Source of the DNA: Steroidobacteraceae bacterium
GTDB lineage: Bacteria > Pseudomonadota > Gammaproteobacteria > Steroidobacterales > Steroidobacteraceae
Reading direction: 5' to 3'
Length of the DNA: 34,451 nucleotides
Assembly (NCBI GenBank): GCA_035571575.1
Contig: DATNCK010000363.1
Location: forward strand, 1 to 34,451
Shown: piece by piece, positions 7,529 through 32,045 of the stretch
Layout of the letters: each line of letters starts with the position of its first letter
How positions within the stretch are numbered: the stretch's first letter is position 1
Notes under the pieces: model-generated
The model's input: only the letters and a program-made list of their open reading frames with translations
What the model was told of the DNA's origin: nothing
Database searches by the model: none
Position numbers and translations under genes: made by a program

Positions 7529-7594
7529 CGCAGCGGTCGGCTGGGGCAGCGAAGCGAGTTAACATTCCGGCACAACAAATCGGGGGGAAAGACC

Positions 7595-9355: not shown

Positions 9356-9457
9356 GAGCGGTGGGGTGCGGCGCTTCCGGCGGCGTCGTATCCGCGTAAC
9401 TGAAAGTGTTAATGTCCGCGCAGTCTCGCGGACGGCAGAAAGGTACAACTAGAACAA

Positions 9458-10474
9458 ATGTCCCGCCCTCCCTTCCAGCAGATCGCCAAGAGCGATCTCG
9501 ACCGCCTGCGCACCTTCCGGCTGCTGCCCAATCTGACCAAGATTCCGCTGTTCGTGGGTTTGATGGTGTTCTTCACCTACGTGGCCTGGCAGGCCGATAG
9601 TTGGCCGCTGCAGTGGGCCGCGTACATCGCCATCGGCTATGTGTGGATGGGCATGGTCACCTTCATGCACGATGCCCTGCACTACACGCTGTTCCGAAGC
9701 CGCACGGCGAACTGGATCTTCGGCGTGCTGTGCATGCTGCCCATCTTCGCTTCCTTCGTCGGCTTTCGCGAAGATCACATCGAACATCATCGCCACAATC
9801 GTTCGGCGCGCGATCCGGATGCCTTCACCATGGGCAAACGCGGCTTCGCCGACTTCCTGGTGTTCTACAGCTATGCGCTGATCGGTGGCGTGCTCAGCTT
9901 CATCCACTTCAACTTCATCTACCCTTTCCAGAAGTTCAAGGCGCGCGAGTGGGCCATCCAGCTGGGTGAGACGGCGCTGAAGGTGGCCGTGTATTGGGTG
10001 GTGCTGGCTTATGCCGCCGAACATGGTGTGCTGGGCAAGACGCTGGAGGTCTGGCTGTATCCGGTGCTGGTGCTGTCGCTGCTGAATTCCATGCGCTTCA
10101 TCTCCGAGCACTACGGCACGCCATGGGAAGCAGGTCAGATGGCGGGCACGCGCACCGTCATCAGCAATCCGGTGAATTCATTCTTCTGGAACAACATCAA
10201 CTGGCACATCGGTCATCACGTATATCCGAGCGTGCCCTGGTACAACCTGGTCGAACTGCATCGGGTGCTGGAACCGCAGATCAAGGCCAGCGGCGCGCCG
10301 GTGGACAAGAGTTACATGGCGGTCTATTTCAAGGCATTGCGTGGCGGCCCGGAGTCGCAGCCCCGGCTGGCTCGGGCGCTGGCGGAACGCGCGGTGTCGC
10401 GCGCGATGCCGGCGGTCGCCGCTGCAGCGCCCGCAGTGGTGCCGGCTGTTGCACCGGTGGCGCTGGTCGACTGA
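9458..10474 (+). CDS. Membrane fatty-acid desaturase family protein
   Basis: 338-aa ORF with three histidine boxes (HDALH, EDHIEHHRH, HIGHHVYP) and several hydrophobic segments. The tail is Ala/Val/Pro-rich. Confidence 0.8.
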   Translation: MSRPPFQQIAKSDLDRLRTFRLLPNLTKIPLFVGLMVFFTYVAWQADSWPLQWAAYIAIGYVWMGMVTFMHDALHYTLFRSRTANWIFGVLCMLPIFASFVGFREDHIEHHRHNRSARDPDAFTMGKRGFADFLVFYSYALIGGVLSFIHFNFIYPFQKFKAREWAIQLGETALKVAVYWVVLAYAAEHGVLGKTLEVWLYPVLVLSLLNSMRFISEHYGTPWEAGQMAGTRTVISNPVNSFFWNNINWHIGHHVYPSVPWYNLVELHRVLEPQIKASGAPVDKSYMAVYFKALRGGPESQPRLARALAERAVSRAMPAVAAAAPAVVPAVAPVALVD

Positions 10475-12236: not shown

Positions 12237-13595
12237 CTACTTGCCGATGCAGAAGCTGCTGAAGATATGGCCCAGCAATTCGTCACTGGTGACATCACCG
12301 ATCACTTCGCCCAGCGAAGCCTGCGCATCGCGCAGTTCAAATGCCGCAAGTTCTCCGTGTTTTGCGGCCAGTTGCCGGCAGGCGGTGTCGAGTTGCGCTG
12401 CGGCTTTTTCCAGCGCGTTCACATGGCGTGCACGCGCCGAGAAGCTGCCACCGGCGATTTCCGTGTGGCCAGCCACAGCGGCGAGATGAGCTCGCAGCGC
12501 ATCCAGTCCCTCTCCGGTGAAGGCGGAGATCCGCAGGTGCGGCCCTGGTGGGTCAGAGTCTGTTGAGGATGCCACCAGATCGGACTTGTTCATGACCAGC
12601 GTCAGCGGCATGTCGGCGGGCAGCGCGCTGCGCGTGGCGTCGAAGCTGCGGCCGCTCGGATCGGTCACGCCGTCGATGACATACAGCACGTGATCGGCAT
12701 GCTGCAGCACCTCGCGCGCGCGGCGCATGCCCTCGGCTTCGATGGCATCGTCGGTGACGTCGCGCAGGCCGGCAGTGTCGATGAACTCCATGGGCACGCC
12801 GCCGATGTCGACCTTCTCGCGCAGCAGGTCGCGCGTGGTGCCGGCGACAGGCGTGACGATGGCGGCATCGAAACCCACCAAGGCGTTCAGCAACGTGCTC
12901 TTGCCGGCATTGGGCGCGCCGGCGATCACTACCGTCATGCCGCGCGTCAGCAATGCGCCGCGACGGGCTGCGATGAGCACACTGTCGAGCAATGCGCGCA
13001 CGTATTCCACGCGCTCACGCAGCTCGGCGCTGGCGAGGAAGTCGATCTCTTCTTCAGGGAAGTCGATGGCCGCTTCCACATACACGCGCAGCGCGGTGAG
13101 TGCATCGCGCGTGGCCTGCACGCGCTGCGAGAACTCACCCTGCAGTGAGCGCATCGCGGCGCGCGCCGCCGCTTGCGACCCGGCCTGGATGAGATCGGCG
13201 ATGGCCTCGGCCTGCGCCAGATCGATCTTGTCGTTGAGGAAGGCGCGCTCGGAAAACTCCCCTGCCCGTGCGCGCCTTGCGCCGAGCTCCACCACGCGTT
13301 CGATCAGCGTCTCGACGATGAGGCCACCGTGACCCTGCAGCTCGAGCACGTGTTCACCGGTGAAGGAATGCGGCGCGGGGAAGTACAACGCGATGCCGCT
13401 GTCGATGATCTCTCCCTGAGTGCCCTCGGTGCCGGCATCGCGCCAGCGGCTGAAAGAAGCCATGCGCGGCACCGGCAACTCACCCAACAGCGCCTGCGCG
13501 ATGGCGGGCACCATTGTTCCGGATACACGTACAATCGCTACGCCACCGCGACCCGGAGGGGTCGCAGCAGCAACAATGGTGTCCGTAGACCGCAT
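12237..13595 (-). CDS. mnmE: tRNA modification GTPase MnmE (TrmE)
   Basis: 452-aa ORF with a G-domain P-loop GAPNAGKSTLLNAL, DTAGLR, NKSDL and the characteristic C-terminal CIGK. It sits in the conserved position downstream of yidC. Confidence 0.95.
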   Translation of the reverse strand: MRSTDTIVAAATPPGRGGVAIVRVSGTMVPAIAQALLGELPVPRMASFSRWRDAGTEGTQGEIIDSGIALYFPAPHSFTGEHVLELQGHGGLIVETLIERVVELGARRARAGEFSERAFLNDKIDLAQAEAIADLIQAGSQAAARAAMRSLQGEFSQRVQATRDALTALRVYVEAAIDFPEEEIDFLASAELRERVEYVRALLDSVLIAARRGALLTRGMTVVIAGAPNAGKSTLLNALVGFDAAIVTPVAGTTRDLLREKVDIGGVPMEFIDTAGLRDVTDDAIEAEGMRRAREVLQHADHVLYVIDGVTDPSGRSFDATRSALPADMPLTLVMNKSDLVASSTDSDPPGPHLRISAFTGEGLDALRAHLAAVAGHTEIAGGSFSARARHVNALEKAAAQLDTACRQLAAKHGELAAFELRDAQASLGEVIGDVTSDELLGHIFSSFCIGK

Positions 13596-13611: not shown

Positions 13612-15387
13612 CTAGTTGCGAACGGTCTGCGCCGCCGCGATGCGACGGTTGATGTTCCACTGCTGCGCGATGGTCAGCAGCGTGTTCACCACGTAGTACA
13701 GCACCAGGCCCGATGGGAAGAAGGCGAAGGTCACCGACATCACGATCGGCAGGATCATCATCACCTTGGCCTGCACCGGATCGGGCGGCGCGGGGTTCAG
13801 CTTGTACTGGATGAGCATGGCGCCGGCCATGATCAGCGGCAGCACGTAGTAGGGATCGCGCGAGGAGATGTCTTGCAGCCAGCCGAAGAACGGCGCCTGG
13901 CGCATCTCCACGCTCTCGAGCAGCACCCAGTAGAAGGCGATGAACACGGGGATCTGCACCAGCTGCGGCAGACAGCCCGCGGCCGGGTTCACCTTCTCTT
14001 TCTTGTACAGCTCCATCATCGCCTGGCCGAGCTTCTGGCGATCGTCCTTGTACTGCTCCTGGATGGCCTTCAGTCGCGGCTGGATGAGTTTCATCTTCGC
14101 CATCGAGCGGCCGGAGGTTTCCGCCAGCGGATAGAACAGCAGCTTCAGCAGGAAGGTGACGACGATGATCGCCACGCCCCAGTTGTTGAAGATGGAGTGC
14201 ACCTTGTCGAGCAGCCAGAAGAGGTACTTCGACAGGAAGGTCATGATGCCGAAGTCGGCCGCGCGGCCGAGTTCCTTGTGGATGGTCTCGAGCTGGCGCT
14301 GCAGCTTCGGACCGACGAACAAGGTTTCCTTGATGGAACCCATGGCGCCAGGCGCCACCGTGACGGTGGGCCCGACTGTGGTGACGACGTATTCATCGCC
14401 ACGCGCGGTCATGGTGTAGCGATCTTCCTCGCCGCGATTAGGAACCACTGCGACGACAAAGTGATGCTGCAGTGAAGCCACCCAGCCATCGGTGATCTTG
14501 CGATCGAGGCTGGCGTCTTCCTTGCTCGTGATCTTCAGCTTCTGGTACTTCTTGCCATCGTAGATCGCAGGACCCGTGAAGGAGTAGCTGTCTACGTTGA
14601 AGTAAGAACGCTTCACTGCCGGCATGTCGTGCAGGATCTGCGCATACGACTGCACCGACCACGCCGCCTGAGAGGCATTCTCGACGGCATATTCGATGTC
14701 GATGCGATAGGAGCCGCGATGGAACACCAGCGTCTTGATGACCTTCACGCCATCGGCTGAGGTCCAAGTAAGCGGCACGCGGATTTCGTCGCTGCCCTCG
14801 CGCAACACATAGGAGGCGGCCTCGCTCTGGAACAGCGCCAGGTGCGTGGGATAGGCGTCCGCCGGCACATTGCCGCTGCCGGCCAGGCCGGTCTGCAGCA
14901 GGTATTGCTCGCCCTCACCTTCGTGACGCAGCAGCCGCACGGGTGTGGGCTGGCCCTTCACCTGCGGATAGAACAGCAGGTCGGCGCGCTGGAGTTGGCC
15001 ACCCTGCGTGTTCACGTCCACGTCGAGCGCATCGGTGCGCACGGTGATGAGCGAACCGCTGCTGACGGCGGGGGCTGCAGCCGGCGCGGTAGCAGGTACC
15101 GCACCGGGCGCCGCCGCCGGTGTCGCTGGCGCGCTCGCCGGGGGAACCGTTGCGCCGGCCGTAGCGGGGACCGTGCCTACCGCGGGAGTTGGCGTCGCAG
15201 GCGTGGGCGCCGTCTGCGGAATCGCCGCGCCCAACGGCTTGTTCACTTTTTCAGCTTCGGCAGCCTTCTGCGCGGCAGCGGCGATGGCGGCATCGCGCGG
15301 CCCAAACTCCGCCACCCAGGTGGAGTAGTTCACGAGCACGGCCAGGGCGAGTGCCACCCAGAGGATCAGTCGGACGTTCTTCATCAT
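13612..15387 (-). CDS. yidC: Membrane protein insertase YidC
   Basis: 591-aa ORF. It has an N-terminal TM segment, a Pro/Ala/Thr-rich linker, a large periplasmic domain and a C-terminal multi-TM core ([40 protein letters not shown]). Conserved synteny rnpA-yidD-yidC-mnmE. Confidence 0.95.
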
Positions 15388-16199: not shown

Positions 16200-17690
16200 T
16201 CAACGCCCTGCCAGGGCCTCCGTCAGATAGCCGCCTTCCGGCTCCCACCAGCCATGGACCTGGGTATGCAGCCGGAATGGCATCTTCACCCGGGCAATGG
16301 GCCCCTCCCCCAGCCGCATGGCATCGGCGATGACCAGCTCCGAGCGCATCTCGGCGAAGTCGTTGGCCACGGTCAGGATCCAGCCCTCGCCTTCGGGCGC
16401 GTCGGGGCGTGCCGGCACGAACTGCGGTTCGGAGAGGCCATGCGTGCTGCCGGCCGACAGCCGGTCGATGGCATTGGTGTGATGGTCGAAGCGCCAGATG
16501 GCATTGGCCACGCGCACTGACAGATTGCCGCCGCGGGCGCGATCGAAGGGCAGCGAGGGATCGACCATCAGCATGTAGCTGTAGCGGAAGGGCCGCGTGA
16601 GGTAGCGATCGTCGATGCGCACCATCGAGGTGCCGCGCTGACCGTTGAAGAGGATCTCTTCGCGCCAGCCTTCATCCTTCGATGCCAGGTCGAAGGTCCA
16701 GCGGCGGATGGTGGGCGAAACACCAGCCACATCGAAGGACGAACCATCGGCATTCGGAAAGAAGGGATGAAAATTGTTGCTGGCCACCGGCGCGTCGAAG
16801 ATGACGCGATCACCTTCACTGCGCGCATTGGTGGTGTGCGCCAGCATGTTCTGCTCGGGCGTGCCGCGGAACCAGCGGATGTCCTTCACTTCGCCATCGC
16901 GCGGAATGATGGCCACATGACAGGGCAGCGAACGATCGTAGGTCCAGTGGACCTGCCCCGCCTCGAGCCGCTCACGACTGGTGGTCACACCGGTGGTCGG
17001 CAGGATGATGTGACGATCGGTGATCGCCATGTCATGCATCATCGAAACCAGCGGCGCCTTGAACCACCATTCACGCTGCAACTTGCCGTGACGATCGAAG
17101 ATGAACACGGCCAGATCATTGCTGGCATCGCCGCGCGCTTCGTAGGCGAAGGCAATCAGCTCGCCGGTGGCGGGATCGATCTTCGGATGCGCGGTGAAGG
17201 TTTTGGCCTTCATTTGCCCATGAAAATCCCACTCGCCCAGTGTTTCGAGCGTGTTGGGATCGAGCGCCATCGGCGGGCTGTCTTCCTTCATCGAGAACAG
17301 CAGGCCGTGATGGATCATCGGCGTGGTATTGCCGGTGTTCAGGCTCAGATCGCGCACGGATGGATCAGAAGTCAGCCGATTGCGATAGCGTCCGAACAGC
17401 GCACGGCGGGCTTGCGCCTCCGCTTCGTATCTGGCGGTGCGGATATAGCGGGTGCGGAAATCGACGTGGCCGTCCCGGATGCGGAACAGATCCACGGCAC
17501 CGTCGGAGTTGTAGGGCGTATCGTCCGCGAACCGCGGCGGATAGCGCCGATCGATGCAGGAACGGTAGAAGTTGCCCGCAAGGCCCGAGGGAATCTCGCC
17601 CACCACTTCGCAATCGTGCAGGTCCGCTTCGAAGCGCAGCGGTGCAAAGAAGCCGCTGGCCGTTGGATCGCCTTTGAAACTGACCCCCAT
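16200..17690 (-). CDS. Carotenoid/apocarotenoid cleavage oxygenase (RPE65/lignostilbene dioxygenase) family protein
   Basis: 496 aa from ATG at 17690 ([21 protein letters not shown]...). Candidate iron-ligand histidines lie in [22 protein letters not shown] and [10 protein letters not shown]. The track ORF (to 18512) continues antisense into dnaA and is rejected upstream of 17690. Confidence 0.85.
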
Positions 17691-17698
17691 CGTGGAGC

Positions 17699-17724
17699 CG
17701 ATTGTACGCGACGATTGTACGCGA
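17699..17724. repeat. Perfect 13-bp tandem duplication in the oxygenase-dnaA divergent spacer
   Basis: CGATTGTACGCGA occurs at 17699-17711 and again at 17712-17724. It is followed by the short palindrome GCGAGT-AG-ACTCGC (17721-17734). Confidence 0.9.
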
Positions 17725-17765
17725 GTAGACTCGCCTCCCCCTCCGATCCACCCTCCTCTGCGCGC

Positions 17766-19160
17766 ATGCCCGAGCTCTGGACAAAAATTCTCGCGCGGCT
17801 GGAGAACGAAATCCCCGAACAGCAGGTGAATACCTGGCTGCGTCCGCTTCAGGCGGTCGAGGACGGCGCGGGGCTGCGCCTGCTGGCGCCAAACCGCATC
17901 GCCCTGGATTGGGTACAGAGTCACGCCGCCACGCGCATCCGCGTGCTGCTGGGCGAGCTGAGCGGCGCACAGGCGCCGCTGCAGGTGGAAGTCGGATCGC
18001 TGGCTCCCGTGAATGCCCGCGGCCTCAGCAACGGGCACGCCGGCAATGGTCATGGCGCTGCCCACAATGGCGGGCACGGTGAAGCTGCGCGCGGTAATGG
18101 CGCGGTCAGGCGCCCTGCGGTCGAAACCGCCGTACTGATCGGCTCGAAGCTGAATCCGGATTCCACCTTCGAGCATTTCGTCGAGGGCAAGAGTAATCAC
18201 TTCGCCAAGGCCGCCGCGATGCAGGTGGCGGAGAATCCCGGCAAAGCCTACAACCCGCTGTTCATCTATGGCGGCACGGGTCTGGGCAAGACCCATCTGA
18301 TGCAGTCGGTGGGTCACGTGATCCGGCAGCGCGATCCGGCGGCGCGCATCGCCTATGTGCATTCGGAGCGCTTCGTCGACAACATGGTGCAGGCGCTGCG
18401 CCACAACACCATGAACGAGTTCAAGACCAATTATCGTTCGCTGTCGGCGTTGCTCATCGACGACATCCAGTTCTTCGCCAACAAGGCGGCCTCGCAGGAA
18501 GAGTTCTTCCATACCTTCAACACGCTGTTCGAAGGCCAGGCGCAGATCATCATGACTTCGGATCGTTATCCGAAGGAGATTCCCGGTCTCGAGGAGCGAT
18601 TGAAGTCGCGCTTCGGCTGGGGTTTGTCGGTGGCCATCGAACCACCGGAGCTGGAAACCTGCGTGGCTATCCTGATCAGCAAGGCGCAGGCCTCGGGCGT
18701 GGAATTGCCGGAGGAAGTGGCGTTTTTCGTGGCGAAGCGCATTCGTTCGAATGTGCGCGAGCTGGAAGGCGCGCTGCGCCGGATCATCGCGAACGCGCGC
18801 TTTACCGGACAGCCGATCACGCTGGATTTCGCCAAGGAAGCGCTGAAAGATCTGCTGAACCTGCAGGCGCGCCTGGTCACCATCGAGAACATCCAGAAGA
18901 CGGTGGCCGATTACTTCAAGGTGCGCATGAGTGACCTGCTGTCAGAGCGACGCAGCCGCTCGGTGGCACGTCCGCGGCAGGTGGCGATGGCACTGGCCAA
19001 GGAGCTCACTGCGCACAGCCTGCCGGAGATTGGAGAGGCGTTTGGCGGTCGTGACCACACGACTGTTCTGCATGCCTGCAAACGCGTGAAGGAATTGCAG
19101 GAAAGCGAGCCCCGCATGGCTGAGGATTACTCGAACTTGCTGCGGATGCTCACCGGCTGA
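17766..19160 (+). CDS. dnaA: Chromosomal replication initiator protein DnaA
   Basis: 464 aa from ATG at 17766 ([28 protein letters not shown]...). It has a His/Gly/Asn-rich domain II linker, an AAA+ Walker [11 protein letters not shown] and the C-terminal DNA-binding motif [15 protein letters not shown]. The track ORF start at 16767 is an antisense artefact. Confidence 0.97.
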
Positions 19161-20561: not shown

Positions 20562-21617
20562 ATGAGCCTGGCGTCGCTCCAGATCTCTGGAGTTCGCTGC
20601 ATCCAGGCAGCTAGTCTGGAATTCCGGCCAGGCCTGAATCTCGTGTTTGGAGCCAACGGTTCCGGCAAGACATCCATTCTGGAGTCAGCTTTCCTCATCG
20701 GGCGAGGGCGCTCATTCCGCACCCGTCACACCGAGCAGCTCATTGGTCGGGAGCTCGACAGGTTGCAACTCTTCGGCACCACACAGCATCCGTCTCACCG
20801 AATCGGGTTCGAGTATCGGCGTGACGAGTCCTACAACGGCAGACTGGACGGTGAGGACATCAGAAGCCTAGCGGAGTTGCCGGGTGCGTTCTTTGTCGAA
20901 GTGATCGATCCGGAAGTTCACCGACTAGTGGAGGGGGCTCCCGGGGAGCGGAGGCGCTGGTTGGACTGGGGAGTGTTCCACGTGGAACCTGCGTTCCTGG
21001 AGACCTGGGTGCGATTCATCCGCGCGCTGAAGCAGCGCAATGCCTCCCTGAAGCAGGGCCTGGACCCCCGACCTTGGGACGCCGAACTGGTGTTGCACGG
21101 CGAATCTGTGGCGCGGATGCGCGAAGCCTGGCTGCAGTCGGTGCAACCTTTCTGGAAGGCCGCCGTGCAAAGGCTTTCTGGCCTCGACGTGAGCATGGGC
21201 TATTTCCGCGGCTGGGCTGCTGATCGCGAGTTGGGGGAAGTGCTCGAGGCCGGCCTGGAGCGCGATCGCCAGCGAGGGAGCACGCTCGCCGGACCCCAAA
21301 GAGGCGACGTGCAATTGAAAGTGCAGGGCAGAGCAGCGCGGGAGGTGCTATCCCGTGGCCAGCAGAAGCTGGTTGCCGCGGCTCTCGTCCTGGCACTGCT
21401 GCAGCGGTTGAGCGGAGATCCAGGAACGCCGCCGACGCTGCTCCTCGATGATCCTGCCGCCGAGCTGGACTCGCAGCGACTAGCCGCACTGGTCGAACTG
21501 GTGAAAGACCTTCGTTGCCAGCTGGTGGTGACCTCGCTGCATGCAGACCTAGCCATCTTCGGAATCCCCGAGCGTGCGTTCCACGTGGAACGTGGCGTCG
21601 TCACCTCGATGGGATAA
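20562..21617 (+). CDS. recF: DNA replication and repair protein RecF
   Basis: 351-aa ORF with Walker A GANGSGKTSILES, the SMC-like signature SRGQQKLVAAAL and Walker B LLLDDPAAELD. Conserved position after dnaN. Confidence 0.95.
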   Translation: MSLASLQISGVRCIQAASLEFRPGLNLVFGANGSGKTSILESAFLIGRGRSFRTRHTEQLIGRELDRLQLFGTTQHPSHRIGFEYRRDESYNGRLDGEDIRSLAELPGAFFVEVIDPEVHRLVEGAPGERRRWLDWGVFHVEPAFLETWVRFIRALKQRNASLKQGLDPRPWDAELVLHGESVARMREAWLQSVQPFWKAAVQRLSGLDVSMGYFRGWAADRELGEVLEAGLERDRQRGSTLAGPQRGDVQLKVQGRAAREVLSRGQQKLVAAALVLALLQRLSGDPGTPPTLLLDDPAAELDSQRLAALVELVKDLRCQLVVTSLHADLAIFGIPERAFHVERGVVTSMG

Positions 21618-22124: not shown

Positions 22125-22643
22125 ATGGATGCGGAGGACGCAGCATTGCTCGCCGCAGTCCGCGACGGTTCGCAGCAGGCGTTCAACCTGCTGGTCGATC
22201 GTCATCAGCAGGCAGTGCGCGTGTTCCTGCGACGCCTGGTGGGCGCCAACGACGCCGACGATGTCGCGCAGGAAACATTTCTCGCGCTATGGACACAGGC
22301 TCGCATGTTTCGTGGCGGCTCACCCGTGCGCACCTGGCTGCTAGGCATCGCCTGGCGTAAAGCCAAGGACACGCAGCGAAGCTGGTTTCGCCGGCGTCGC
22401 CGCGACCAGGCCTGGCATGAAAGCAGGGATGATCACGAGGAATTCTCTGCTGACATGCAGCGGGCCATGGAACAGGCCATGGCTTCGCTGTCGCTGGATC
22501 AGCGCGCCGCCGTCACCTTGTGCCTTGCCTTCGGGCTGTCGCATGTCGAGGCCTCGGCGACCATGAATCTGCCACTGGGCACAGTGAAATCGCATGTGGC
22601 GCGTGGCCGTGAAAAGCTGCACGCCTTGCTGGGAGACGAGTGA
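22125..22643 (+). CDS. ECF-type RNA polymerase sigma-70 family factor
   Basis: 172-aa ORF. Region 2 is DDVAQETFLALW. Region 4 is LSLDQRAAVTLCLAFGLSHVEASATMNLPLGTVKSHVARGREKL. Confidence 0.9.
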   Translation: MDAEDAALLAAVRDGSQQAFNLLVDRHQQAVRVFLRRLVGANDADDVAQETFLALWTQARMFRGGSPVRTWLLGIAWRKAKDTQRSWFRRRRRDQAWHESRDDHEEFSADMQRAMEQAMASLSLDQRAAVTLCLAFGLSHVEASATMNLPLGTVKSHVARGREKLHALLGDE

Positions 22644-23019: not shown

Positions 23020-23060
23020 GTATGAAAGCGCAATCCGCGCACATACAGGAAGGGCTCGCC

Positions 23061-23936
23061 ATGGATTGTCGACAAGCCGCGGACATCCGCTGGGATCAGG
23101 TCTGCAAGCAGGTTTCAAAAGTCGCCACGCTGATCCTGATGTGGATCTTCGTGCTGCTGGCCGTGTTCAATACGGCATGGGCTCACGCGCCGGCACCGGC
23201 TGTGGGCGCCAAGCAAGTTCTCGAGCAATCGCGCCGGTACCAGTACCAGTTCCGCACCGGTGATGCGACCGTACTGGCTCCCTGGGTCGCGATGCTGGAA
23301 GAGGCGACGAAGGCTGAGCCAGGCAACGCCGACCTCTGGTACTGGCAGGGCTATGCCTACCTCGCGCTTGGCGCCCACTCACTGATGGCGCAGAAACCCG
23401 AAGACGCCATGGCTGCAATGAAGAAGGGCCCGGCGGCGCTGATGCGGGCGCTGAAACTCAATCCCGATCACGCCGAGGCGCTGTCGCAGCTGGGTGGCAT
23501 ACAGACCTTGCTGGGGCCCGTGCTGCAGTTGCCGGCCATGGCGCCGCGTGGTGTGGCGCAGATGAATCGTGCGGTGGAGCTGGCGCCCAATTCCATCCGT
23601 GTGCGGTTGATGCGCGCCTTCGCCGGTCCGAATCTGCCGCCCGAGCTGCGCAACACCGCCAACGAAGCCGAGGATCTGGACTATCTGATCGAGGTTGCGG
23701 AGTGGGGCACGGCTGGCGACTACATCCGCATCATGCGTGGCGATCTGAGTTTCGAAACCGGCCATCCGGATCTGGCACGTGCCATGTACCGCAGCGTTGA
23801 GGGTTCAGGCTCAGGTGCCTCAATGGATGCCAAAGCCCGACTCGCAGCGCTGGAGAAGGGCAGTGTGCCCCTGGCAGACATCAAGGCGCTGCGTACCTCG
23901 GCGGGCTCGCAGTGCGCCATGTGCCACGTAAAATAG
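23061..23936 (+). CDS. Secreted TPR-like protein with a C-terminal CxxCH motif
   Basis: I prefer ATG at 23061, preceded by AGGAAGGG (23048-23055). The track start at 23022 sits 2 nt after the promoter-like motif. There is a hydrophobic signal-like segment VATLILMWIFVLLAVFNTAWA. TPR-like helices include NADLWYWQGYAYLALG and ALKLNPDHAEALSQLGG. The protein ends SQCAMCHVK, with CAMCH at 23913-23927. Confidence 0.7.
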   Translation: MDCRQAADIRWDQVCKQVSKVATLILMWIFVLLAVFNTAWAHAPAPAVGAKQVLEQSRRYQYQFRTGDATVLAPWVAMLEEATKAEPGNADLWYWQGYAYLALGAHSLMAQKPEDAMAAMKKGPAALMRALKLNPDHAEALSQLGGIQTLLGPVLQLPAMAPRGVAQMNRAVELAPNSIRVRLMRAFAGPNLPPELRNTANEAEDLDYLIEVAEWGTAGDYIRIMRGDLSFETGHPDLARAMYRSVEGSGSGASMDAKARLAALEKGSVPLADIKALRTSAGSQCAMCHVK

Positions 23937-24038: not shown

Positions 24039-26486
<2,448 letters not shown>

Positions 26487-26493
26487 AAGGCAT

Positions 26494-26520
26494 GCCGGGG
26501 TTTGGGGTAACATCCCCGGC
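26494..26520 (+). terminator. Candidate stem-loop after gyrB
   Basis: GCCGGGG (26494-26500) pairs with CCCCGGC (26514-26520), with a possible inner GGGG/CCCC pairing. It starts 8 nt after the gyrB stop. There is no T-tract. Confidence 0.35.
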
Positions 26521-26557
26521 CACAACATCCGCTCCAAGAACGAGGCGCTAGACATCC

Positions 26558-27394
26558 GTGGACGTTGGCCATCTGCGTGAATCACTGACCAACAGCATCC
26601 AGACCCTGGCAAATGATGCCGCGGCCCGGCTGCCTGGTCTGATCGTCGCCGTTCTGCTGATCATCGCGGGCTGGATCGTCGCGCGGCTGGCACGCTCCGG
26701 CATGCGACGGGTGCTGACCTCGCTGCAGAAATCCATCGCCCGTCGCAGTGGCCGGCCCGAGAGCGACTCGGGCGCCGAACGCCTCTCTGCCCGTGTGCTC
26801 AGCGGCGTGGTGTTCTGGGCGGTGATCCTGCTGTTCGCTTCCACCGCGACGCAGATCATCGGTCTCGACCTGTTCACGAAGTGGATCAGCGGCATCGTCA
26901 AGCATGTGCCCGGCATCCTCGCGGGCCTGCTCATCATTGCCGCGGGCTTCGTCGCCTCCGGTTTCGTCGGCGACCTGATCCGCTCGAGTGCCAAGCGACT
27001 GCCGAGTGCGCAGCAGGTGGCGCTGGTGCGGGTGGCACAGACCTCGGTGCTGGTGGTGGCGCTGCTGGTGGGCGCGGACCAGATCGGACTGGAAGTGCGC
27101 TGGGTGGCCATCCTGGTGACGGTGACGCTGGGCGTGACGCTGGGCGGCGCGGCGTTGGCAGTGAGCTTCGGTTCCAAGCACTTCATCGCCAATGCCATCG
27201 GCGCGCACTACATGCGCCAGTCCTTCCGCGTTGGCGAGAAGGTGCGCGTGGCGGGCTATGAAGGGCGCATCATCGACATCAACGCCACGTCCATCGTGCT
27301 GGAGACCGCCAGTGGACGCGTGAACATCCCGGCCGGCGCCTACAGCAACAGCCCCATCGAATTGCTGAGCGCAGAGCGCAGCGAGAATGTCTGA
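26558..27394 (+). CDS. Minimal MscS-like (mechanosensitive channel family) membrane protein lacking the C-terminal cytoplasmic domain
   Basis: 278-aa ORF with a GTG start at 26558 (start uncertain). It has two conserved-TM-helix-like repeats (LPGLIVAVLLIIAGWIVARLA and VPGILAGLLIIAAGFVASGFV). The pore-helix-like segment is GVTLGGAALAVSFGSKHFIANAIGAHYM. The MscS beta-domain is FRVGEKVRVAGYEGRIIDINATSIVLETASGRVNIPAGAYSNSPIE, and the protein ends 10 aa later. Confidence 0.75.
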   Translation: MDVGHLRESLTNSIQTLANDAAARLPGLIVAVLLIIAGWIVARLARSGMRRVLTSLQKSIARRSGRPESDSGAERLSARVLSGVVFWAVILLFASTATQIIGLDLFTKWISGIVKHVPGILAGLLIIAAGFVASGFVGDLIRSSAKRLPSAQQVALVRVAQTSVLVVALLVGADQIGLEVRWVAILVTVTLGVTLGGAALAVSFGSKHFIANAIGAHYMRQSFRVGEKVRVAGYEGRIIDINATSIVLETASGRVNIPAGAYSNSPIELLSAERSENV

Positions 27395-28229
27395 AGCGCT
27401 GACGCATGCCTTCCTGCGCGCGCATCCTGAAGACGCCGCACGTGTGCTCGAGGGTTGTCCTCCCGCTGATGTCGTAGCGCTGATGCAGCAGCTGCCGGCG
27501 CGCATCACCGCACCGGTGCTGCAGCTGTTGCGTCCGTCGATGGCCGCGGCGGTTCTGCATGGTGTGGATCTCAATCGCGGCGCGGCATTGGTGGCGCTGC
27601 TCGAAACCAGCATGGCCGCGCGTGTGCTGCGTCAGGTCACCGAAGAGCAGCGCATCGCGCTGCTGGCACGTCTGCGTACCTCCAAGGGCATTGCGTTGCG
27701 ATTCATTCTCGCCGTGCCGGACGACAGCATCGGCGCCTGGGTGGATGCAGACTGCCTCACGCTCACCGGCGAGGTCACCGCAGCGGCGGCGCGCGAGCGT
27801 GCTGCGGCCGCCAACGGCAACACCGAGCGCATCGTGCTGCTCGACGCCGATCGACGGCCGATGTCGTGGATCCTGTTGCCGGATTTGCTGCGCGCACAGC
27901 CCGCAACGCCGGTGTCAGCTCTGGCCGTGCCGATTCCCGCGACGCTGGTGGCCGCGATGCCTTTGTCGGCCGGCTTGTTGCACGCTGCGTGGCGCACGAG
28001 TTCTGTGCTGCCCGTGACCACGCGCCTGGGCACGTTCATCGGCCTGCTGCGTCATGAGCGACTGCAGCAGGTGTATGACCAGGATCGCGCCAGCCGCGGC
28101 CCGGGCATCAATGCGGTGGGCGCGGTGCTGTCGCGCGGCTACTGGCAGAGCGTCACCGGCATCCTGCGCGGTGGCCTGTCGCTGCTGCCGCCGGTGCGCG
28201 CGCTGTCGGAGATTCCCGATGAGCGCTGA
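27387..28229 (+). CDS. Soluble MgtE N-terminal-domain / CBS-like protein (no transmembrane pore domain), paralogue 1
   Basis: 280-aa ORF whose ATG at 27387 overlaps the upstream stop by 8 nt (ATGTCTGA). The N-terminal region FLRAHPEDAARVLEGCPPADVVALMQQLP... follows the MgtE_N pattern. The second half is a degenerate CBS-like region. I saw no hydrophobic TM stretches. Confidence 0.65.
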   Translation: MSEALTHAFLRAHPEDAARVLEGCPPADVVALMQQLPARITAPVLQLLRPSMAAAVLHGVDLNRGAALVALLETSMAARVLRQVTEEQRIALLARLRTSKGIALRFILAVPDDSIGAWVDADCLTLTGEVTAAAARERAAAANGNTERIVLLDADRRPMSWILLPDLLRAQPATPVSALAVPIPATLVAAMPLSAGLLHAAWRTSSVLPVTTRLGTFIGLLRHERLQQVYDQDRASRGPGINAVGAVLSRGYWQSVTGILRGGLSLLPPVRALSEIPDER

Positions 28230-28959
28230 GCTGGCCACGGTCGCGCTGCTCAACGAGCGCTTTCTGACGGACTATCCATTCGAGGCGGCGCGTGCCCTGG
28301 AGGCACTGCCTACGGAATCCACCGTTTCGATCCTGCGTTCTCGTTCGGCAAAAGCGCGTTTGCGTACCTGGCAGGCGCTGGCGCCCGATCGCGCTGCAGA
28401 TGTGCTGATCGCGCTGGATGCGCAAACCGCACAGCAGCTGCTGCTCGAATCCGATCCGCAGGTGAGTGTGGCTGCGTTGTCGCAGGTGGATGCTTCGCGG
28501 CGCGAGGGACTGCTCGCCGCGCTGCCTGAAGAAGCAGCCGCAGATCTGCGTCATGTGATGCAGTACCCGCCCGGCACTGCGGGCTACCTGATGGATCCAC
28601 GCATCGGCGCAATCGATGCGCGGCTCACGGTGGCCGAAGCCATCGAACGCCTGCGCAGTCTGCGAACGCGGGGCCTGAGAGATTTGTTCGTGGTCGACCA
28701 GCAGATGCAGCTGGTCGGTCAGCTCGAGATCGAAGATCTCGCACTTACCGGGCGCGAGCGTCCGCTACGCGAGATCACCCGGGCCGTCACCGCCGTGGTG
28801 CGTGACAACGATACCGCGGCTGTCGTGGCGAAGCGGTGGAGCGAAACGCCACTGACGGTGCTCCCGGTGGTGAATGCAGCGGGGCGTTTCGTCGGAGTAG
28901 TGCGGCAGTCACCGAATGCGCGCTCTTCAAGAGGGCTGCTGCGACGCTTGTTCGGCTGA
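28219..28959 (+). CDS. Soluble MgtE N-terminal-domain / CBS-pair protein (no transmembrane pore domain), paralogue 2
   Basis: 246 aa from ATG at 28219, overlapping the upstream gene by 11 nt (ATGAGCGCTGA). The N-terminal region is FLTDYPFEAARALEALPTES.... The linker and CBS region read MQYPPGTAGYLMDPRIGAIDARLTVAEAIERLR...LFVVDQQMQLVGQLEIEDL...LPVVNAAGRFVGVV, matching the MgtE linker+CBS pattern. The track start at 28054 is rejected. Confidence 0.7.
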   Translation: MSAELATVALLNERFLTDYPFEAARALEALPTESTVSILRSRSAKARLRTWQALAPDRAADVLIALDAQTAQQLLLESDPQVSVAALSQVDASRREGLLAALPEEAAADLRHVMQYPPGTAGYLMDPRIGAIDARLTVAEAIERLRSLRTRGLRDLFVVDQQMQLVGQLEIEDLALTGRERPLREITRAVTAVVRDNDTAAVVAKRWSETPLTVLPVVNAAGRFVGVVRQSPNARSSRGLLRRLFG

Positions 28960-28976
28960 AGCGCCGCGTCTTCAGC
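28955..28976. terminator. Candidate bidirectional stem-loop spanning two convergent stop codons
   Basis: GCTGAAG (28955-28961), 8-nt loop, CTTCAGC (28970-28976). The TGA of the MgtE-like gene (28957-28959) and the TGA of the CAP gene (complement of 28972-28974) both lie in the stem arms. Confidence 0.4.
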
Positions 28977-29481
28977 GCGCCGGCTGACCGAAGTCCTGCA
29001 CCCAGTAGAAATGGCCGCGCTTGCGGCCTTTTGCCACGGCGCTGCCCATGTCTCGAAAGCGCGCATCCATGATGTTGGCGCAGTGACCTGGGCTTGCCAG
29101 CCAGCCGGCAACCACTTCCTCCGCTGAGTCGGAACCGAAGGCGATGTTCTCGCCGATGAGCATCCAGCGATATCCCGTGCGGCGCACGCGATCTCTGGGT
29201 TCGCTGCCATCCGGGGCGTGGTGATCGAAATAGCTGCGCGCGGCCATGTCACGGGCGTGGGAAGCCGCCGCCTTGTGCAGAGATGCTGACGGCCGCAGCG
29301 CCGAGACAGCGGGAAAAAAATCATGGCCGCAACGCCTGCCCTGAGCCCGGGCTGCATTCACGAGTTCGAGAATGCGCTCTTGCACCACCGTGGGCCTGGC
29401 CGTCGCCGGCACCCCGGCATGGCCGAGACCTGCCGATCCGCAAAGGATGAGAGTCGCCAGCAGCCGGTAGGTTGGGCTCAT
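28972..29481 (-). CDS. Secreted CAP/SCP (PR-1-like) domain protein
   Basis: 169 aa from ATG at 29481 (MSPTYRLLATLILCGSAGLGHAG, signal peptide). CAP-like motifs: LHKAAASHARDMAARSYFDHHAPDGS, GENIAFG and VAGWLASPGHCANIM. The track extension to 29610 runs through the AT-rich promoter region and is rejected. Confidence 0.8.
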   Translation of the reverse strand: MSPTYRLLATLILCGSAGLGHAGVPATARPTVVQERILELVNAARAQGRRCGHDFFPAVSALRPSASLHKAAASHARDMAARSYFDHHAPDGSEPRDRVRRTGYRWMLIGENIAFGSDSAEEVVAGWLASPGHCANIMDARFRDMGSAVAKGRKRGHFYWVQDFGQPAR

Positions 29482-29501
29482 CTTCACAGCCCAAGTCTGG
29501 C

Positions 29502-29527
29502 GTTCACCCCCTGAATCGGGGGTGAAC
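29502..29527. repeat. Perfect 10-bp inverted repeat (hairpin or palindromic operator) in the CAP-gene leader
   Basis: GTTCACCCCC (29502-29511), loop TGAATC, GGGGGTGAAC (29518-29527). It lies 21 nt upstream of the CAP-gene ATG on the minus strand, with no upstream gene that it could terminate. Confidence 0.85.
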
Positions 29528-29548
29528 CACCGGCTTGATCCGTGAGTC

Positions 29549-29594
29549 TTGAAATCGATCCGATTTAGATATATCTTTACTTCGACATATCGAA
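29549..29594 (+). promoter_or_regulatory. AT-rich divergent promoter region with three consecutive palindromes (candidate PadR operator and promoter)
   Basis: Palindromes: AAATCG-ATC-CGATTT (29552-29566), AGATATATCT (29567-29576) and TTCGA-CATA-TCGAA (29581-29594). A possible promoter is -35 TTGAAA (29549-29554) with -10 TATCTT (29572-29577) at 17-nt spacing. SD AGGA (29597-29600) precedes ATG 29609. Confidence 0.4.
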
Positions 29595-29608
29595 ACAGGA
29601 TCGAATCC

Positions 29609-30205
29609 ATGAGAGCTCATTTTCACAGGCCCCATCATTCCGACCGTCATGCCGGCTCGCCTCCGGGAGGCCGCCACTTTCGCGGCGGTCACCATCACGG
29701 CGGCGGGCCGGGAGGCGCCGGTGGCTTCGGCGGCCGGGGCGGACATGGCGAGCGCGTGTTTCACCATGGCGCTCTGCGCCTGGTAGTGCTCGCGCTGATC
29801 GCCGAGTCGCCACGCCACGGCTACGAAATCATCAAGGCCATCGAGGAACGCCTGGCCGGCAGCTATTCGCCCAGCCCCGGCGTCATCTACCCAACGCTGA
29901 CGCTGCTGCAGGAAATCGGCCACGTCACCGTCGAAGAACACGAAGGCAAGAAGCGCTACTCGATCACCGAGGAAGGCCGGCAGCACCTGCTCGAGAACCA
30001 GCCCGCGGTGGATGCAGTCATGGCGCGCATGCGCGACGTGAGTTCGCGCTTCGGCGGCGGACCGGCGCCGCAGATCATCCGCGCAATGGAGAACCTGAAG
30101 CTGGCGCTGCGACTGCGCATGGGCCGCGGACCGCTCACCGACGAACAACTCCAGGCCGTCGCCGCAGCCATCGACGCGGCAGCCACCGCCGTCGAGCGCA
30201 CCTGA
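29609..30205 (+). CDS. PadR family transcriptional regulator with a His/Gly-rich N-terminal extension
   Basis: 198 aa from ATG at 29609. The N-terminal roughly 53 aa, MRAHFHRPHHSDRHAGSPPGGRHFRGGHHHGGGPGGAGGFGGRGGHGERVFHHG, hold 13 His. The winged-helix core is LRLVVLALIAESPRHGYEIIKAIEERLAGSYSPSPGVIYPTLTLLQEIGHV. Confidence 0.85.
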   Translation: MRAHFHRPHHSDRHAGSPPGGRHFRGGHHHGGGPGGAGGFGGRGGHGERVFHHGALRLVVLALIAESPRHGYEIIKAIEERLAGSYSPSPGVIYPTLTLLQEIGHVTVEEHEGKKRYSITEEGRQHLLENQPAVDAVMARMRDVSSRFGGGPAPQIIRAMENLKLALRLRMGRGPLTDEQLQAVAAAIDAAATAVERT

Positions 30206-30213
30206 GGTCGGTC

Positions 30214-30519
30214 ATGACGAAGGTAACAGGTGAAGCCGCAACCCCCGATGCCGCGCGCGTGATCCGGCGGCTGTGCCGCCACTGGGCGCATAAATTCCCG
30301 GTGAAATTCGACGACACATCGGGCGAGATCCAGATCAACGATGTGCGTGTGGCGATGCAGGCCGGCGCTGAAACCCTGCATGTGGTGCTGGAAAATCCGA
30401 GCGGAGACGTGCCGGAGAGATTGCCGGGTGTCGTCGCTGACCATCTGATACGCATGGCGGCAACTGATCCCGCTTTACAGGTGCGTTGGAACGCGGCCGA
30501 CCAGACGCCGGTGGCGTGA
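30214..30519 (+). CDS. DUF2218-like small protein
   Basis: 101-aa ORF with SD GAGG upstream. The motifs RRLCRHWAHKFPV and VVADHLIRMA...LQVRW resemble the DUF2218 family as I recall it. It starts 8 nt after the PadR stop. Confidence 0.65.
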   Translation: MTKVTGEAATPDAARVIRRLCRHWAHKFPVKFDDTSGEIQINDVRVAMQAGAETLHVVLENPSGDVPERLPGVVADHLIRMAATDPALQVRWNAADQTPVA

Positions 30520-30533
30520 CGATCGTCGCCGCG

Positions 30534-32045
30534 ATGAAGGAAGACGGCATCAACGAGGATCTGCGCGCCTGCCTGCGCACACTGCAGGCCATCCACGCAG
30601 ATCGCGGCCTGCTCACGCAGCTGACGCAGGAGCAGCGCCGTGAACTGCTGATGCTGGCCGGGCTGGTGGCCAAACCCGAGCGCAACGAATTGCGCCAGAT
30701 GGCCAAGGCCTTCCGCCGCGCCGATCGTCAGGCCGTTCAGCAACAGGATCGTCAGTCGATCGAAACAGCGGGTCTGAGGCAGCAGCGCCGCAGTGAAACG
30801 TATGCGCCGCTATGGTTGCCGCGGCCCGATGCAGAAGTCGCGCAGAGCAATGCCGGCGCCAGCAGTGCCTCGGCCACCGAACGTCCGACGCTGAATGCTG
30901 CGCGCAACTGCTATGTCTGCAAGCAGCCCTACACCACAGTCCATCGCTACTACGATTCGATGTGCTGCGCCTGCGGCGACTTCAACTACGCCAAGCGCGA
31001 ACACAGCGCCGATCTCACCGGTCGCGTGGCGCTGGTCACTGGCGCGCGCGTCAAGATTGGCTACCAGGCTGCGTTGAAATTGCTGCGTGCCGGCGCGAGT
31101 GTCATTGCGCTCACGCGATTTCCCGTGGATGCCGCGGCGCGCTATGCGCAGGAAGCCGACTATGTCCAGTGGCGCGAGCGCCTGCAGATCCACGGTCTGG
31201 ATCTGCGCCACACTCCCAGCGTGGAGATCTTCGCGCGCTGGCTGGGTGAGCAGCTGCCGCGACTCGACTACATCCTGAACAATGCCTGCCAGACCGTGCG
31301 GCGTCCGGCCGGATTCTTCCGCCATCTGCTGCAGCGTGAGGCCGCTGGGTCCACCGCATTGCTGGCCGAACACCGCGCGCCGCTGGCGCAGCACGACACC
31401 CTGTGCCGCGCGTTGGTCGCCGCCACGGCGCAACCCGAGGGCCTGATTCACAGCGCCGCGCTGTCGCAGCGGCGCTACCTGGACGAGGATTATCTGGAGG
31501 GTGAGGCGCTGTTTCCTTCCGGTCGCTACGACGAGGACCAGCAGCAGGTGGATCTGCGCGCGGTGAACAGCTGGCGGCTGCGGCTGCATGAAGTGGAAAC
31601 GCCGGAGCTGCTCGAGGTGCAGCTGGTGAATGCCATCGCGCCCTACATCCTCAACGCACGGCTGAAACCGCTGATGATGAAGAGCGGCGCGCGTGATCTG
31701 CACATCGTCAATGTCAGTGCGATGGAAGGGCAGTTCTACCGCACCACCAAGACCGACAAGCATCCCCATACCAACATGGCCAAGGCGGCGCTGAACATGA
31801 TGACGCGCACCAGCGCGCCGGACTATGTGCGGGATGGCATTCACATGAATGCGGTGGACACCGGCTGGGTCACCGATGAAGATCCCGCCGTGCATGCGGC
31901 ACGCAAGGCAGAGGAGGGCTTTGCGCCGCCGCTGGACATCATCGACGGCGCGGCGCGCATCGTTGATCCCGTCTTTGCCGGTGCCAACACTGGCACTCAC
32001 CTGTGGGGACAGTTCCTGAAGGATTACAGACCCGCGCCGTGGTGA
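30534..32045 (+). CDS. SDR-family oxidoreductase with an N-terminal helical region and a CxxC...CxxC zinc-ribbon-like insert
   Basis: 503 aa from ATG at 30534 (the track start at 30486 is a TTG overlapping the DUF2218 gene). It contains CYVCKQPYTTVHRYYDSMCCAC, the Rossmann motif VALVTGARVKIGYQAAL, NNAC, and NVSAMEG...HPHTNMAKAAL. Confidence 0.8.
   Translation: MKEDGINEDLRACLRTLQAIHADRGLLTQLTQEQRRELLMLAGLVAKPERNELRQMAKAFRRADRQAVQQQDRQSIETAGLRQQRRSETYAPLWLPRPDAEVAQSNAGASSASATERPTLNAARNCYVCKQPYTTVHRYYDSMCCACGDFNYAKREHSADLTGRVALVTGARVKIGYQAALKLLRAGASVIALTRFPVDAAARYAQEADYVQWRERLQIHGLDLRHTPSVEIFARWLGEQLPRLDYILNNACQTVRRPAGFFRHLLQREAAGSTALLAEHRAPLAQHDTLCRALVAATAQPEGLIHSAALSQRRYLDEDYLEGEALFPSGRYDEDQQQVDLRAVNSWRLRLHEVETPELLEVQLVNAIAPYILNARLKPLMMKSGARDLHIVNVSAMEGQFYRTTKTDKHPHTNMAKAALNMMTRTSAPDYVRDGIHMNAVDTGWVTDEDPAVHAARKAEEGFAPPLDIIDGAARIVDPVFAGANTGTHLWGQFLKDYRPAPW

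Follow-up and report, generated by a model that had tools for sequence, protein, structure and literature searches.

A conserved operon of a cage-less MscS-like protein and MgtE-type proteins, and its pore-less derivative in a Steroidobacteraceae-like clade

Directly downstream of gyrB in the 34,451-nucleotide stretch of DNA that we analysed (hereafter the window: positions 1 to 34,451 of contig DATNCK010000363.1, Steroidobacteraceae bacterium assembly GCA_035571575.1), three overlapping open reading frames (ORFs) on the forward strand code for a short membrane protein of the MscS family of mechanosensitive channels (ORF1) and for two soluble paralogues of the cytosolic part of the Mg2+ channel MgtE (ORF2 and ORF3). 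The trio and its elements are as follows:

26558..27394, forward strand: ORF1, GTG start, 278 amino acids (aa), short MscS-family membrane protein
27104..27223, forward strand: ORF1 residues 183–222, equivalent of the pore-lining helices TM3a/TM3b (TM, transmembrane), placed by alignment with the MscS segment of a YnaI-MscS chimera
27224..27364, forward strand: ORF1 residues 223–269, MscS beta-domain (FRVGEKVRVAGYEGRIIDINATSIVLETASGRVNIPAG...), from Pfam MS_channel_2nd and AlphaFold strands 228–269
27387..27394, forward strand: overlap of the ORF1 stop with the ORF2 start, ATGTCTGA, read directly from the sequence
27387..28229, forward strand: ORF2, 280 aa, soluble and pore-less paralogue of the MgtE cytosolic region
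28116..28184, forward strand: ORF2 residues 244–266, C-terminal helix GYWQSVTGILRGGLSLLPP, from the family alignment and AlphaFold helix 244–266
28219..28229, forward strand: overlap of the ORF2 stop with the ORF3 start, ATGAGCGCTGA, with GGAG 9 nt upstream of the ORF3 start
28219..28959, forward strand: ORF3, ATG at 28219, 246 aa, MgtE N domain and CBS pair
28912..28959, forward strand: ORF3 residues 232–246, PNARSSRGLLRRLFG, and the stop codon, a short basic tail in place of the plug helix

The coordinates of the three ORFs and both start/stop overlaps are exactly as an earlier reading of the same sequence (hereafter the initial annotation) had described them. The start of ORF3 was set at 28219 in place of the 28054 of the program-made ORF list, the position of its MSAEL motif being the start in all homologues. 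Both junctions also overlap, by 4–23 nt, in the gene calls of six related loci, and the three genes are predicted to be translationally coupled.

ORF1 is a protein of the MscS family (TC 1.A.23) that stops short of the cytoplasmic cage. Pfam searches recovered MS_channel_1st_1 (PF05552, 38.3 bits) and a partial MS_channel_2nd match (PF00924, 24.2 bits against a cut-off of 20.2) covering profile positions 14–62 of 68 over residues 219–266, with no match to MS_channel_3rd. In a profile search of the PDB, residues 111–268 aligned to about residues 22–167 of E. coli MscS, and the alignments to MSL1 and H. pylori MscS ran to the end of the beta-domain and then stopped. The best 50 Foldseek matches are all MscS-family channels, and the AlphaFold monomer model (predicted local distance difference test, pLDDT, 75; predicted TM-score, pTM, 0.40) consists of long helices and a small beta-domain followed by the C-terminus. 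That C-terminus, residue 278, lies 9 residues past the beta-domain and about 10 past its last strand; therefore, the alpha-beta domain and the C-terminal beta-barrel, and with them the vestibule with its side portals, are absent. Thus, the initial annotation was right, by Pfam, PDB profile and AlphaFold alike, that ORF1 has MscS-type TM helices and a beta-domain and ends about 10 aa later without a cage.

The part that ORF1 does possess is the pore-forming one. When ORF1 is aligned by HMMER with the MscS segment of the chimera YnaI-MscS (9h2s), its residues L200 and F204 fall on the E. coli MscS gate residues L105 and L109, and N212 and G215 on N117 and on G121 of the TM3a/TM3b hinge (G113/G121). 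Over 77 loci of the family, the first gate column holds L, I or V and the second L or F plus one V and one I, while the equivalents of N117 and G121 are invariantly N and G. ORF1 hence shares with E. coli MscS (PDB 2OAU/6RLD) the pore-lining TM3, the beta-domain, the hydrophobic gate positions and the equivalents of these two residues, and its five hydrophobic TM segments by hydropathy, two more than in MscS, recall YnaI, which likewise has two extra N-terminal TM helices. In contrast to both E. coli MscS and YnaI, it lacks the alpha-beta domain, the C-terminal beta-barrel and the portal-bearing vestibule, and its family is encoded together with MgtE-type proteins (79 of the 80 informative loci described below). 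Taken together, these features make ORF1 a credible pore-forming MscS homologue without the alpha-beta domain and C-terminal barrel.

The short form is the norm in the ORF1 family, which comprises 1156 clusters (50% identity) at E<=1e-30 and whose homologues measure 270–300 aa end to end. A few longer family members show only extra N-terminal extensions or repeats of TM helices. Cage-less MscS-type channels have a precedent in Trypanosoma cruzi: TcMscS, without the portal-forming C-terminal part, still forms a heptameric, tension-gated mechanosensitive channel (PMC12334622). Like ORF1, TcMscS has an MscS fold that stops after the beta-domain; it differs in having two short membrane helices, against five full TM segments in ORF1, and in having no reported partner sensor proteins. 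Another natural example may be the 171-aa "small-conductance mechanosensitive channel" of the heptameric structures 9sdb/9sdg/9sed/9seh, of which 9sdb is the best single-sequence PDB match of ORF1, and which, judging from the alignment offsets, may end right after the beta-domain. The suggestion of the initial annotation that soluble sensors replace a missing cytoplasmic domain is thus not needed, given that TcMscS is a functional heptamer alone and that short ORF1-type proteins also stand beside full-length MgtE.

ORF2 and ORF3 represent the sensor half of MgtE without its pore. ORF3 matches both MgtE_N (PF03448; 43.7 bits, cut-off 25.9) and CBS (PF00571; 35.6 bits) in Pfam, and aligns to positions 25–242 of the 450 of the MgtE equivalog model TIGR00400, the cut-off of which is 232.75 bits; the two MgtE-type proteins of the window reach only 72.5 and 22.2 bits. 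In ORF2, Pfam detects MgtE_N only (41.8 bits, cut-off 25.9), with no CBS match. Its AlphaFold model (pLDDT 86) superposes on MgtE cytosolic domains inclusive of the CBS pair (8gpv, 5x9g and 2yvy; Foldseek, E ~1e-14, TM-score 0.72–0.77, with 0.72–0.75 for 8gpv and 5x9g), and a hidden Markov model (HMM) of the MgtE cytosolic region, built from proteins of the operon, matches its positions 9–231. Its layout is accordingly an N domain, a CBS pair degenerate in sequence and a C-terminal helix. The two proteins share 25% identity over 222 co-linear residues (E 2e-10), which, with the Pfam and Foldseek results, upholds their initial description as paralogues with the MgtE_N plus CBS organisation.

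The absence of the hydrophobic MgtE pore, too, is as first described: neither ORF2 nor ORF3 has a Pfam match to the pore domain PF01769 or, by hydropathy, a TM-grade segment, against five such segments in ORF1, and our own HMM of the MgtE TM region, from operon proteins, matches nothing in the entire 34-kb window. ORF3 has neither the plug helix nor any of the five pore helices, its stop codon lying 13 bp from a convergent CAP-domain ORF. The tails of the truncated ORF3 proteins extend 14–23 aa past the CBS pair and are basic and rich in R and W, and their sequence is not conserved among homologues. In ORF2, the helix 244–266 sits at the position of the MgtE plug helix/TM1; across the family its mean Kyte-Doolittle hydropathy is 0.4–1.45, i.e. 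moderately hydrophobic and below TM grade, and the family alignment shows Y252, L267 and P268 to be invariant. It is a candidate docking or membrane-surface helix. When compared with Thermus thermophilus MgtE (2YVX/2ZY9; cytosolic part 2YVY/5X9G), ORF2 and ORF3 have the N domain and the CBS pair arranged and folded alike, and differ in lacking the plug helix and the five-TM pore and in the replacement of the ATP ligands. Judged by these domain contents, ORF2 and ORF3 are MgtE-derived sensor proteins and not MgtE channels (TC 1.A.26).

To place the trio in a wider context, we scanned one genome per GTDB species and recovered relatives of ORF1 in 190 species, mostly Burkholderiales (Rubrivivax, Ideonella, Piscinibacter, Thiobacillus, Nitrotoga and Methylophilaceae), Steroidobacteraceae and Solimonas. 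Eighty loci, the window included, had enough downstream sequence for classification with HMMs built from the operon proteins:

ORF1, ORF2 and full-length MgtE: 74 of 80 loci
ORF1, ORF2 and pore-less ORF3: 4 of 80 loci, window included
ORF1 and ORF2 with no third gene: 1 of 80 loci (L022)
ORF1 only: 1 of 80 loci, a distant, 28%-identical homologue beside a CitMHS-type transporter

Three more pore-less loci were added after this count, giving seven in all. ORF1, ORF2 and ORF3 follow one another on the same strand, their junctions overlapping or abutting, in the 74 loci with full-length MgtE and in the seven pore-less ones, so the trio is co-conserved in related genomes, as the proposal of the initial annotation required. 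The full-length third gene of the sister lineages codes for an MgtE of 432–435 aa carrying the PF01769 pore. Gene order and junction overlaps span Burkholderiales, Steroidobacteraceae-like bacteria, Nitrotoga, Thiobacillus and Methylophilaceae at ORF1 identities of 38–48%, and the ORF1-family representative at rank 150 (E 2e-58) lies once more in a full trio. Thus, the conserved unit is a short MscS-like protein, a pore-less MgtE paralogue and an MgtE Mg2+ channel. A canonical full-length MgtE at this place in other genomes, which the initial annotation had itself set against its proposal, is therefore what the family as a whole displays.

Two loci depart from this pattern in their own ways. 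In L022, counted above as the locus with no third gene (6001–9762 of a Rubrivivax-like contig of a metagenome-assembled genome, MAG), frameshifted, homoserine-pathway-like ORFs on the opposite strand directly follow ORF1-ORF2, and an MgtE gene is missing. Possibly the third gene was lost here a second time, independently; otherwise, assembly or rearrangement of an error-prone contig may have produced an artefact. In a Thiobacillus MAG (L058, 6693–7613), an ORF2-like frame runs into the last ~65 residues of the MgtE TM domain (HMM positions 125–189) and ORF1 is split by a stop, which suggests either an internal deletion that joined ORF2 to the C-terminal end of MgtE or a misassembly.

Searches of the accessible literature for an MscS-MgtE operon, for PF05552 and for pore-less MgtE proteins returned nothing relevant, and no description of the trio, in agreement with the initial annotation, which knew of no characterised counterpart. 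The combination is apparently undescribed; all of its component families are already known.

The origin of the pore-less variant can be followed in the tree and in the synteny. A neighbour-joining tree of the three concatenated proteins, with ORF3 represented by its cytosolic region, groups all seven pore-less loci in a single clade, sister to the full-length loci L009, L015 and L016, with the full-length L010 and L017 outside, all within a Steroidobacteraceae-like branch. The relevant flanking genes are:

Window 24042–26486: gyrB, directly upstream of the trio
Window 28972–32045: CAP(-)-PadR-DUF2218-SDR block; the short-chain dehydrogenase (SDR) is an adh_short protein with a long N-terminal extension
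L015 444–5918: CAP-PadR-DUF2218-SDR block
L016 2934–5905: CAP-PadR-DUF2218-SDR block
L095 8765–11207: the corresponding block, here without PadR

In the window, the 3' side of the trio is thus occupied by a convergent CAP-domain gene, then by PadR, DUF2218 and the SDR of ~500 aa. The full-length locus L017 reads recF-gyrB-ORF1-ORF2-MgtE, and the full-length L015 and L016 read CAP(-)-PadR-DUF2218-SDR-ORF1-ORF2-MgtE; the window and L095 read gyrB-ORF1-ORF2-truncated ORF3-CAP(-)-DUF2218-SDR, with PadR after CAP in the window only. Among the other pore-less loci, L011 retains CAP(-) and the SDR, and L094 the SDR only. Where the gyrB context is preserved, the switch in gene order coincides exactly with the 3' end of ORF3, and the trio as such has remained intact through at least three distinct genomic contexts. 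Monophyly of the pore-less loci and the change of synteny at the end of ORF3 thereby indicate that the pore domain was probably lost once, by a rearrangement or deletion with its breakpoint in the codons of the plug helix. With a full-length MgtE as third gene in 74 of the 80 informative loci, the pore-less ORF3 is a derived, lineage-specific truncation of one Steroidobacteraceae-like clade and not a primary "split" design.

The CAP block lies on opposite sides of the trio in the two groups: in the pore-less clade it comes after the truncated ORF3, and in the full-length sisters before ORF1, which resembles a circular permutation of gene order. Considering an origin of the two gene orders by tandem duplication, we found in L016 neither a second copy of the trio nor gyrB upstream of the CAP block. 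A tblastn search at E<=10 recovered no remnant of the MgtE TM region in the window or the other pore-less loci. As a candidate remnant of the pore we considered a 91-aa ORF with two predicted TM helices located 3' of the truncated ORF3 (L011 3743–4018; L094 8766–9041) and rejected it, as it has no Pfam match and no similarity to the MgtE TM region; it is absent from the window.

All three genes are under purifying selection in the pore-less clade. The approximate pairwise ratio of nonsynonymous to synonymous substitution rates (dN/dS) for ORF3 is 0.21–0.36 at dS of 0.6–1.8, compared with 0.22–0.47 for the same MgtE region of the full-length sisters, and the ratios are 0.08–0.25 for ORF1 and 0.09–0.24 for ORF2. 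The reading frame of ORF3 is intact in all seven pore-less loci, and more than 30 clusters (90% identity) of pore-less proteins of 245–257 aa show 54–100% identity to the ORF3 of the window. Out of 57 columns conserved to at least 90% in 70 cytosolic domains of full-length operon MgtEs, the pore-less clade keeps 48. A pseudogene status of ORF3 was rejected from the dN/dS values, the count of intact homologues and the conserved columns.

As for what these modules might sense, MgtE is a homodimeric Mg2+ channel in which Mg2+ bound at the N/CBS interfaces immobilises the plug helices and so shuts the pore (PMC8104411), and ATP binding to its CBS domain tunes the Mg2+ response through Y170, R187, D188, N203 and F227 of the T. 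thermophilus protein (PMC5529423). Column counts over an alignment to 2yvy showed that, in pore-less and full-length members alike, Y170 is replaced by D/E, R187 by E/Q/H, N203 by R and F227 by L/I/V, leaving D188 as the only one of these ATP-binding residues retained in this MgtE subfamily. We therefore rejected, as unlikely, ATP sensing of the canonical kind and regard Mg2+ as the likelier ligand of the ORF2 and ORF3 modules; of the divalent-cation or nucleotide sensor that had been suggested at the outset, the nucleotide half is unlikely in its canonical form. Of the 18 acidic columns conserved in the 70 full-length operon MgtEs, a count of acidic positions in general, the pore-less clade keeps 14. 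Four residues conserved in full-length MgtE, namely R133, R200, E201 and V204 (ORF3 numbering), are lost in all pore-less members.

The window is the neighbourhood of the chromosomal replication origin; the nearest homologues come from Steroidobacteraceae MAGs. Besides gyrB and the CAP block, it holds:

12237–13595, reverse strand: mnmE
13612–15387, reverse strand: yidC
within 16767–19160: dnaA
19389–20492: dnaN
20562–21617: recF
22125–22643: extracytoplasmic function (ECF) sigma factor
23022–23936: tetratricopeptide repeat (TPR) protein
26487..26557, forward strand: gyrB-ORF1 intergenic spacer of 71 bp, with a GC-rich hairpin CCGGGG...CCCCGG and GAGG ~12 nt before the GTG start

The dnaA-dnaN spacer carries a cluster of three DnaA boxes with one mismatch each (19179, 19225 and 19331); the window-wide number of such boxes, five, is not significant by itself, being reached in 8 of 100 shuffles. 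Further upstream, positions 2486–7528 on the reverse strand code for a signalling protein of 1680 aa that combines Ser/Thr protein kinase, AAA_16 ATPase, GAF and GGDEF diguanylate cyclase domains; the ORF of 1357 aa lying opposite to it at 2501–6574 is probably a shadow ORF of the high-GC sequence.

The spacer between gyrB and ORF1 (26487–26557) contains the GC-rich inverted repeat CCGGGGTTTGGGGTAACATCCCCGG without a T-run, which could be the 3' stem-loop of gyrB or act weakly as an attenuator; co-transcription of the trio with gyrB is possible. A promoter scan found no sigma-70-like promoter in 26300–29200, a result we rate as uninformative, as we do that of a terminator scan. We also considered an M-box riboswitch upstream of ORF1 and rejected it: no Rfam family, M-box included, reaches its gathering score anywhere in the window, and the spacer of 71 bp is too short.

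How might these proteins work together? In the reading that we prefer, ORF1 would be an MscS-type oligomeric channel with a hydrophobic gate at L200/F204 and a ring of beta-domains, lacking a vestibule. ORF2 and the cytosolic part of ORF3 would be MgtE-type, Mg2+-responsive modules that close up upon binding Mg2+ and are not canonical ATP binders, and they would serve as separable regulatory subunits that sit on ORF1 or function together with it. The ancestral operon would then have coordinated Mg2+ influx via MgtE with a valve controlled by tension and Mg2+, whereas in the clade of the window only the sensor-plus-valve part would be left, with ORF1 as the sole conduit. The key observation behind this proposal is that all three genes have been selected after the loss of the only MgtE pore of the operon, and therefore the MgtE modules should have a role beyond their own pore. 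With ORF1 being the only membrane protein left in the operon of the window, this retention suggests that the sensor modules of MgtE type cooperate with the MscS-like protein. A general parallel is offered by the stand-alone or fused CBS-pair modules of transporters such as OpuCA, CorC/CNNM and ClC, several of which are among the Foldseek matches of ORF2: in them, a cytosolic CBS pair senses a ligand and controls membrane transport. There, CBS pair and transporter are fused or come from one transporter family, whereas in the present operon the modules are separate polypeptides beside an unrelated MscS-family channel that they would control.

We are highly confident in the anatomical and evolutionary account of the trio; the regulatory complex, with MgtE-type sensors acting on or with ORF1, is offered tentatively, as a possibility that falls somewhat short of even odds, and for the two blended into one explanation our estimate is roughly 50%. 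A still more specific version is doubtful. It has the N+CBS modules sitting as Mg2+-sensing subunits on the exposed beta-domain ring or membrane-proximal face of the cage-less MscS, to form a heteromeric, ligand-modulated channel ancestrally coupled, physically or functionally, to MgtE and thereby linking tension or osmotic state to Mg2+ homeostasis. For the clade of the window, this would mean that the sensor-valve complex outlived the deletion of the MgtE pore. The split, mixed-lineage gated channel of the initial annotation thus survives in part: with all three genes selected in the pore-less clade such a channel is possible, but the split is not primary, since a full-length MgtE is the usual neighbour. 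The ORF2/ORF3 heterodimer that it pictured docking onto ORF1 stays conjectural.

Several points weigh against this combined explanation. First, there is no protein fusing ORF1 to MgtE_N among the best 150 representatives of the ORF1 family. Second, the symmetry of a heptameric MscS ring does not match that of an MgtE-type module, which is dimeric. Third, most lineages have a complete MgtE, to which ORF1 and ORF2 may equally well be accessory; it is also possible that a full-length MgtE elsewhere in the genome acts with ORF2 and ORF3 in trans. Fourth, the loss of the four residues listed above implies that the module has changed in some respect, although these may be positions relevant only to pore coupling. 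Finally, the neighbour-joining tree carries no support values, and dS values above 1 are saturated, making the dN/dS ratios approximate.

Among the alternatives, the one that survives best, though we consider it unlikely, is that ORF1, ORF2 and the ORF3 remnant serve as trans-acting accessories of a full-length MgtE, or of another Mg2+ transporter, encoded elsewhere in the pore-less genomes; for example, the soluble N+CBS proteins might join mixed cytosolic assemblies with MgtE, with ORF1 conveying membrane tension. The family-wide pattern fits this well, for in 74 of the 80 informative loci a complete MgtE occupies the third, translationally coupled position, so that the primary partner of ORF1 and ORF2 would be a real MgtE, and most sensor residues of ORF3 have been kept after the loss of the pore, as expected if it has MgtE-type partners. 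However, an MgtE pore domain is found neither in the 34 kb of the window nor beside any of the six other pore-less loci, and L014, the one reference MAG with the pore-less trio, has no second ORF1-type locus among the top matches of the scan. Moreover, the pore of MgtE lies at the homodimer interface (PMC8104411), with no obvious site for extra sensor subunits.

A looser association is less probable still: the genes would be co-transcribed and functionally independent, with ORF1 a small mechanosensitive valve and ORF2 and ORF3 soluble Mg2+-binding or CBS-type regulators of, e.g., an enzyme or transcription factor. That the cage-less TcMscS works alone (PMC12334622), that stand-alone CBS-pair proteins regulating unrelated targets are common, with many among the ORF2 Foldseek matches, and that the 150 representatives contain no fusion proteins are all compatible with such independence. 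It sits poorly, however, with the constancy of gene order and of the 4–23-nt overlaps at both junctions across distant lineages, a pattern rare for unrelated functions, and with the trio having stayed together in at least three genomic contexts.

The last alternative, that ORF3 is a dead mgtE fragment in an operon on its way out, can draw on its demonstrable truncation, on the unconserved read-through of its last 14–23 residues and on the four otherwise conserved residues lost, but it is very improbable and already largely refuted by a reading frame that is intact at all seven pore-less loci and throughout more than 30 protein clusters at 54–100% identity, by dN/dS values of 0.21–0.36 at dS 0.6–1.8 that are no higher than in the full-length sisters, and by a start that still overlaps the ORF2 stop and is preceded by GGAG.

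Both MscS-like channels and MgtE are well understood, each as a channel complete in itself, and to our knowledge neither is known with a dedicated partner subunit from the other family. The conserved MscS-MgtE operon points to an unrecognised functional link between mechanosensitive/osmotic-type channels and Mg2+ homeostasis; in Bacillus, one study reports a physiological connection between the two (PMC8844918). At the level of annotation, proteins of this kind, with 245–285 aa and labelled "magnesium transporter", are not transporters. The pore-less clade amounts to a natural deletion of the pore in which the sensor half, its paralogue and the MscS-like protein have been kept under selection, and it thereby makes testable what the cytosolic module of MgtE does beyond gating its own pore. 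If it were true that this module gates ORF1, the latter would be the first MscS-fold channel with separate ligand-sensing subunits.

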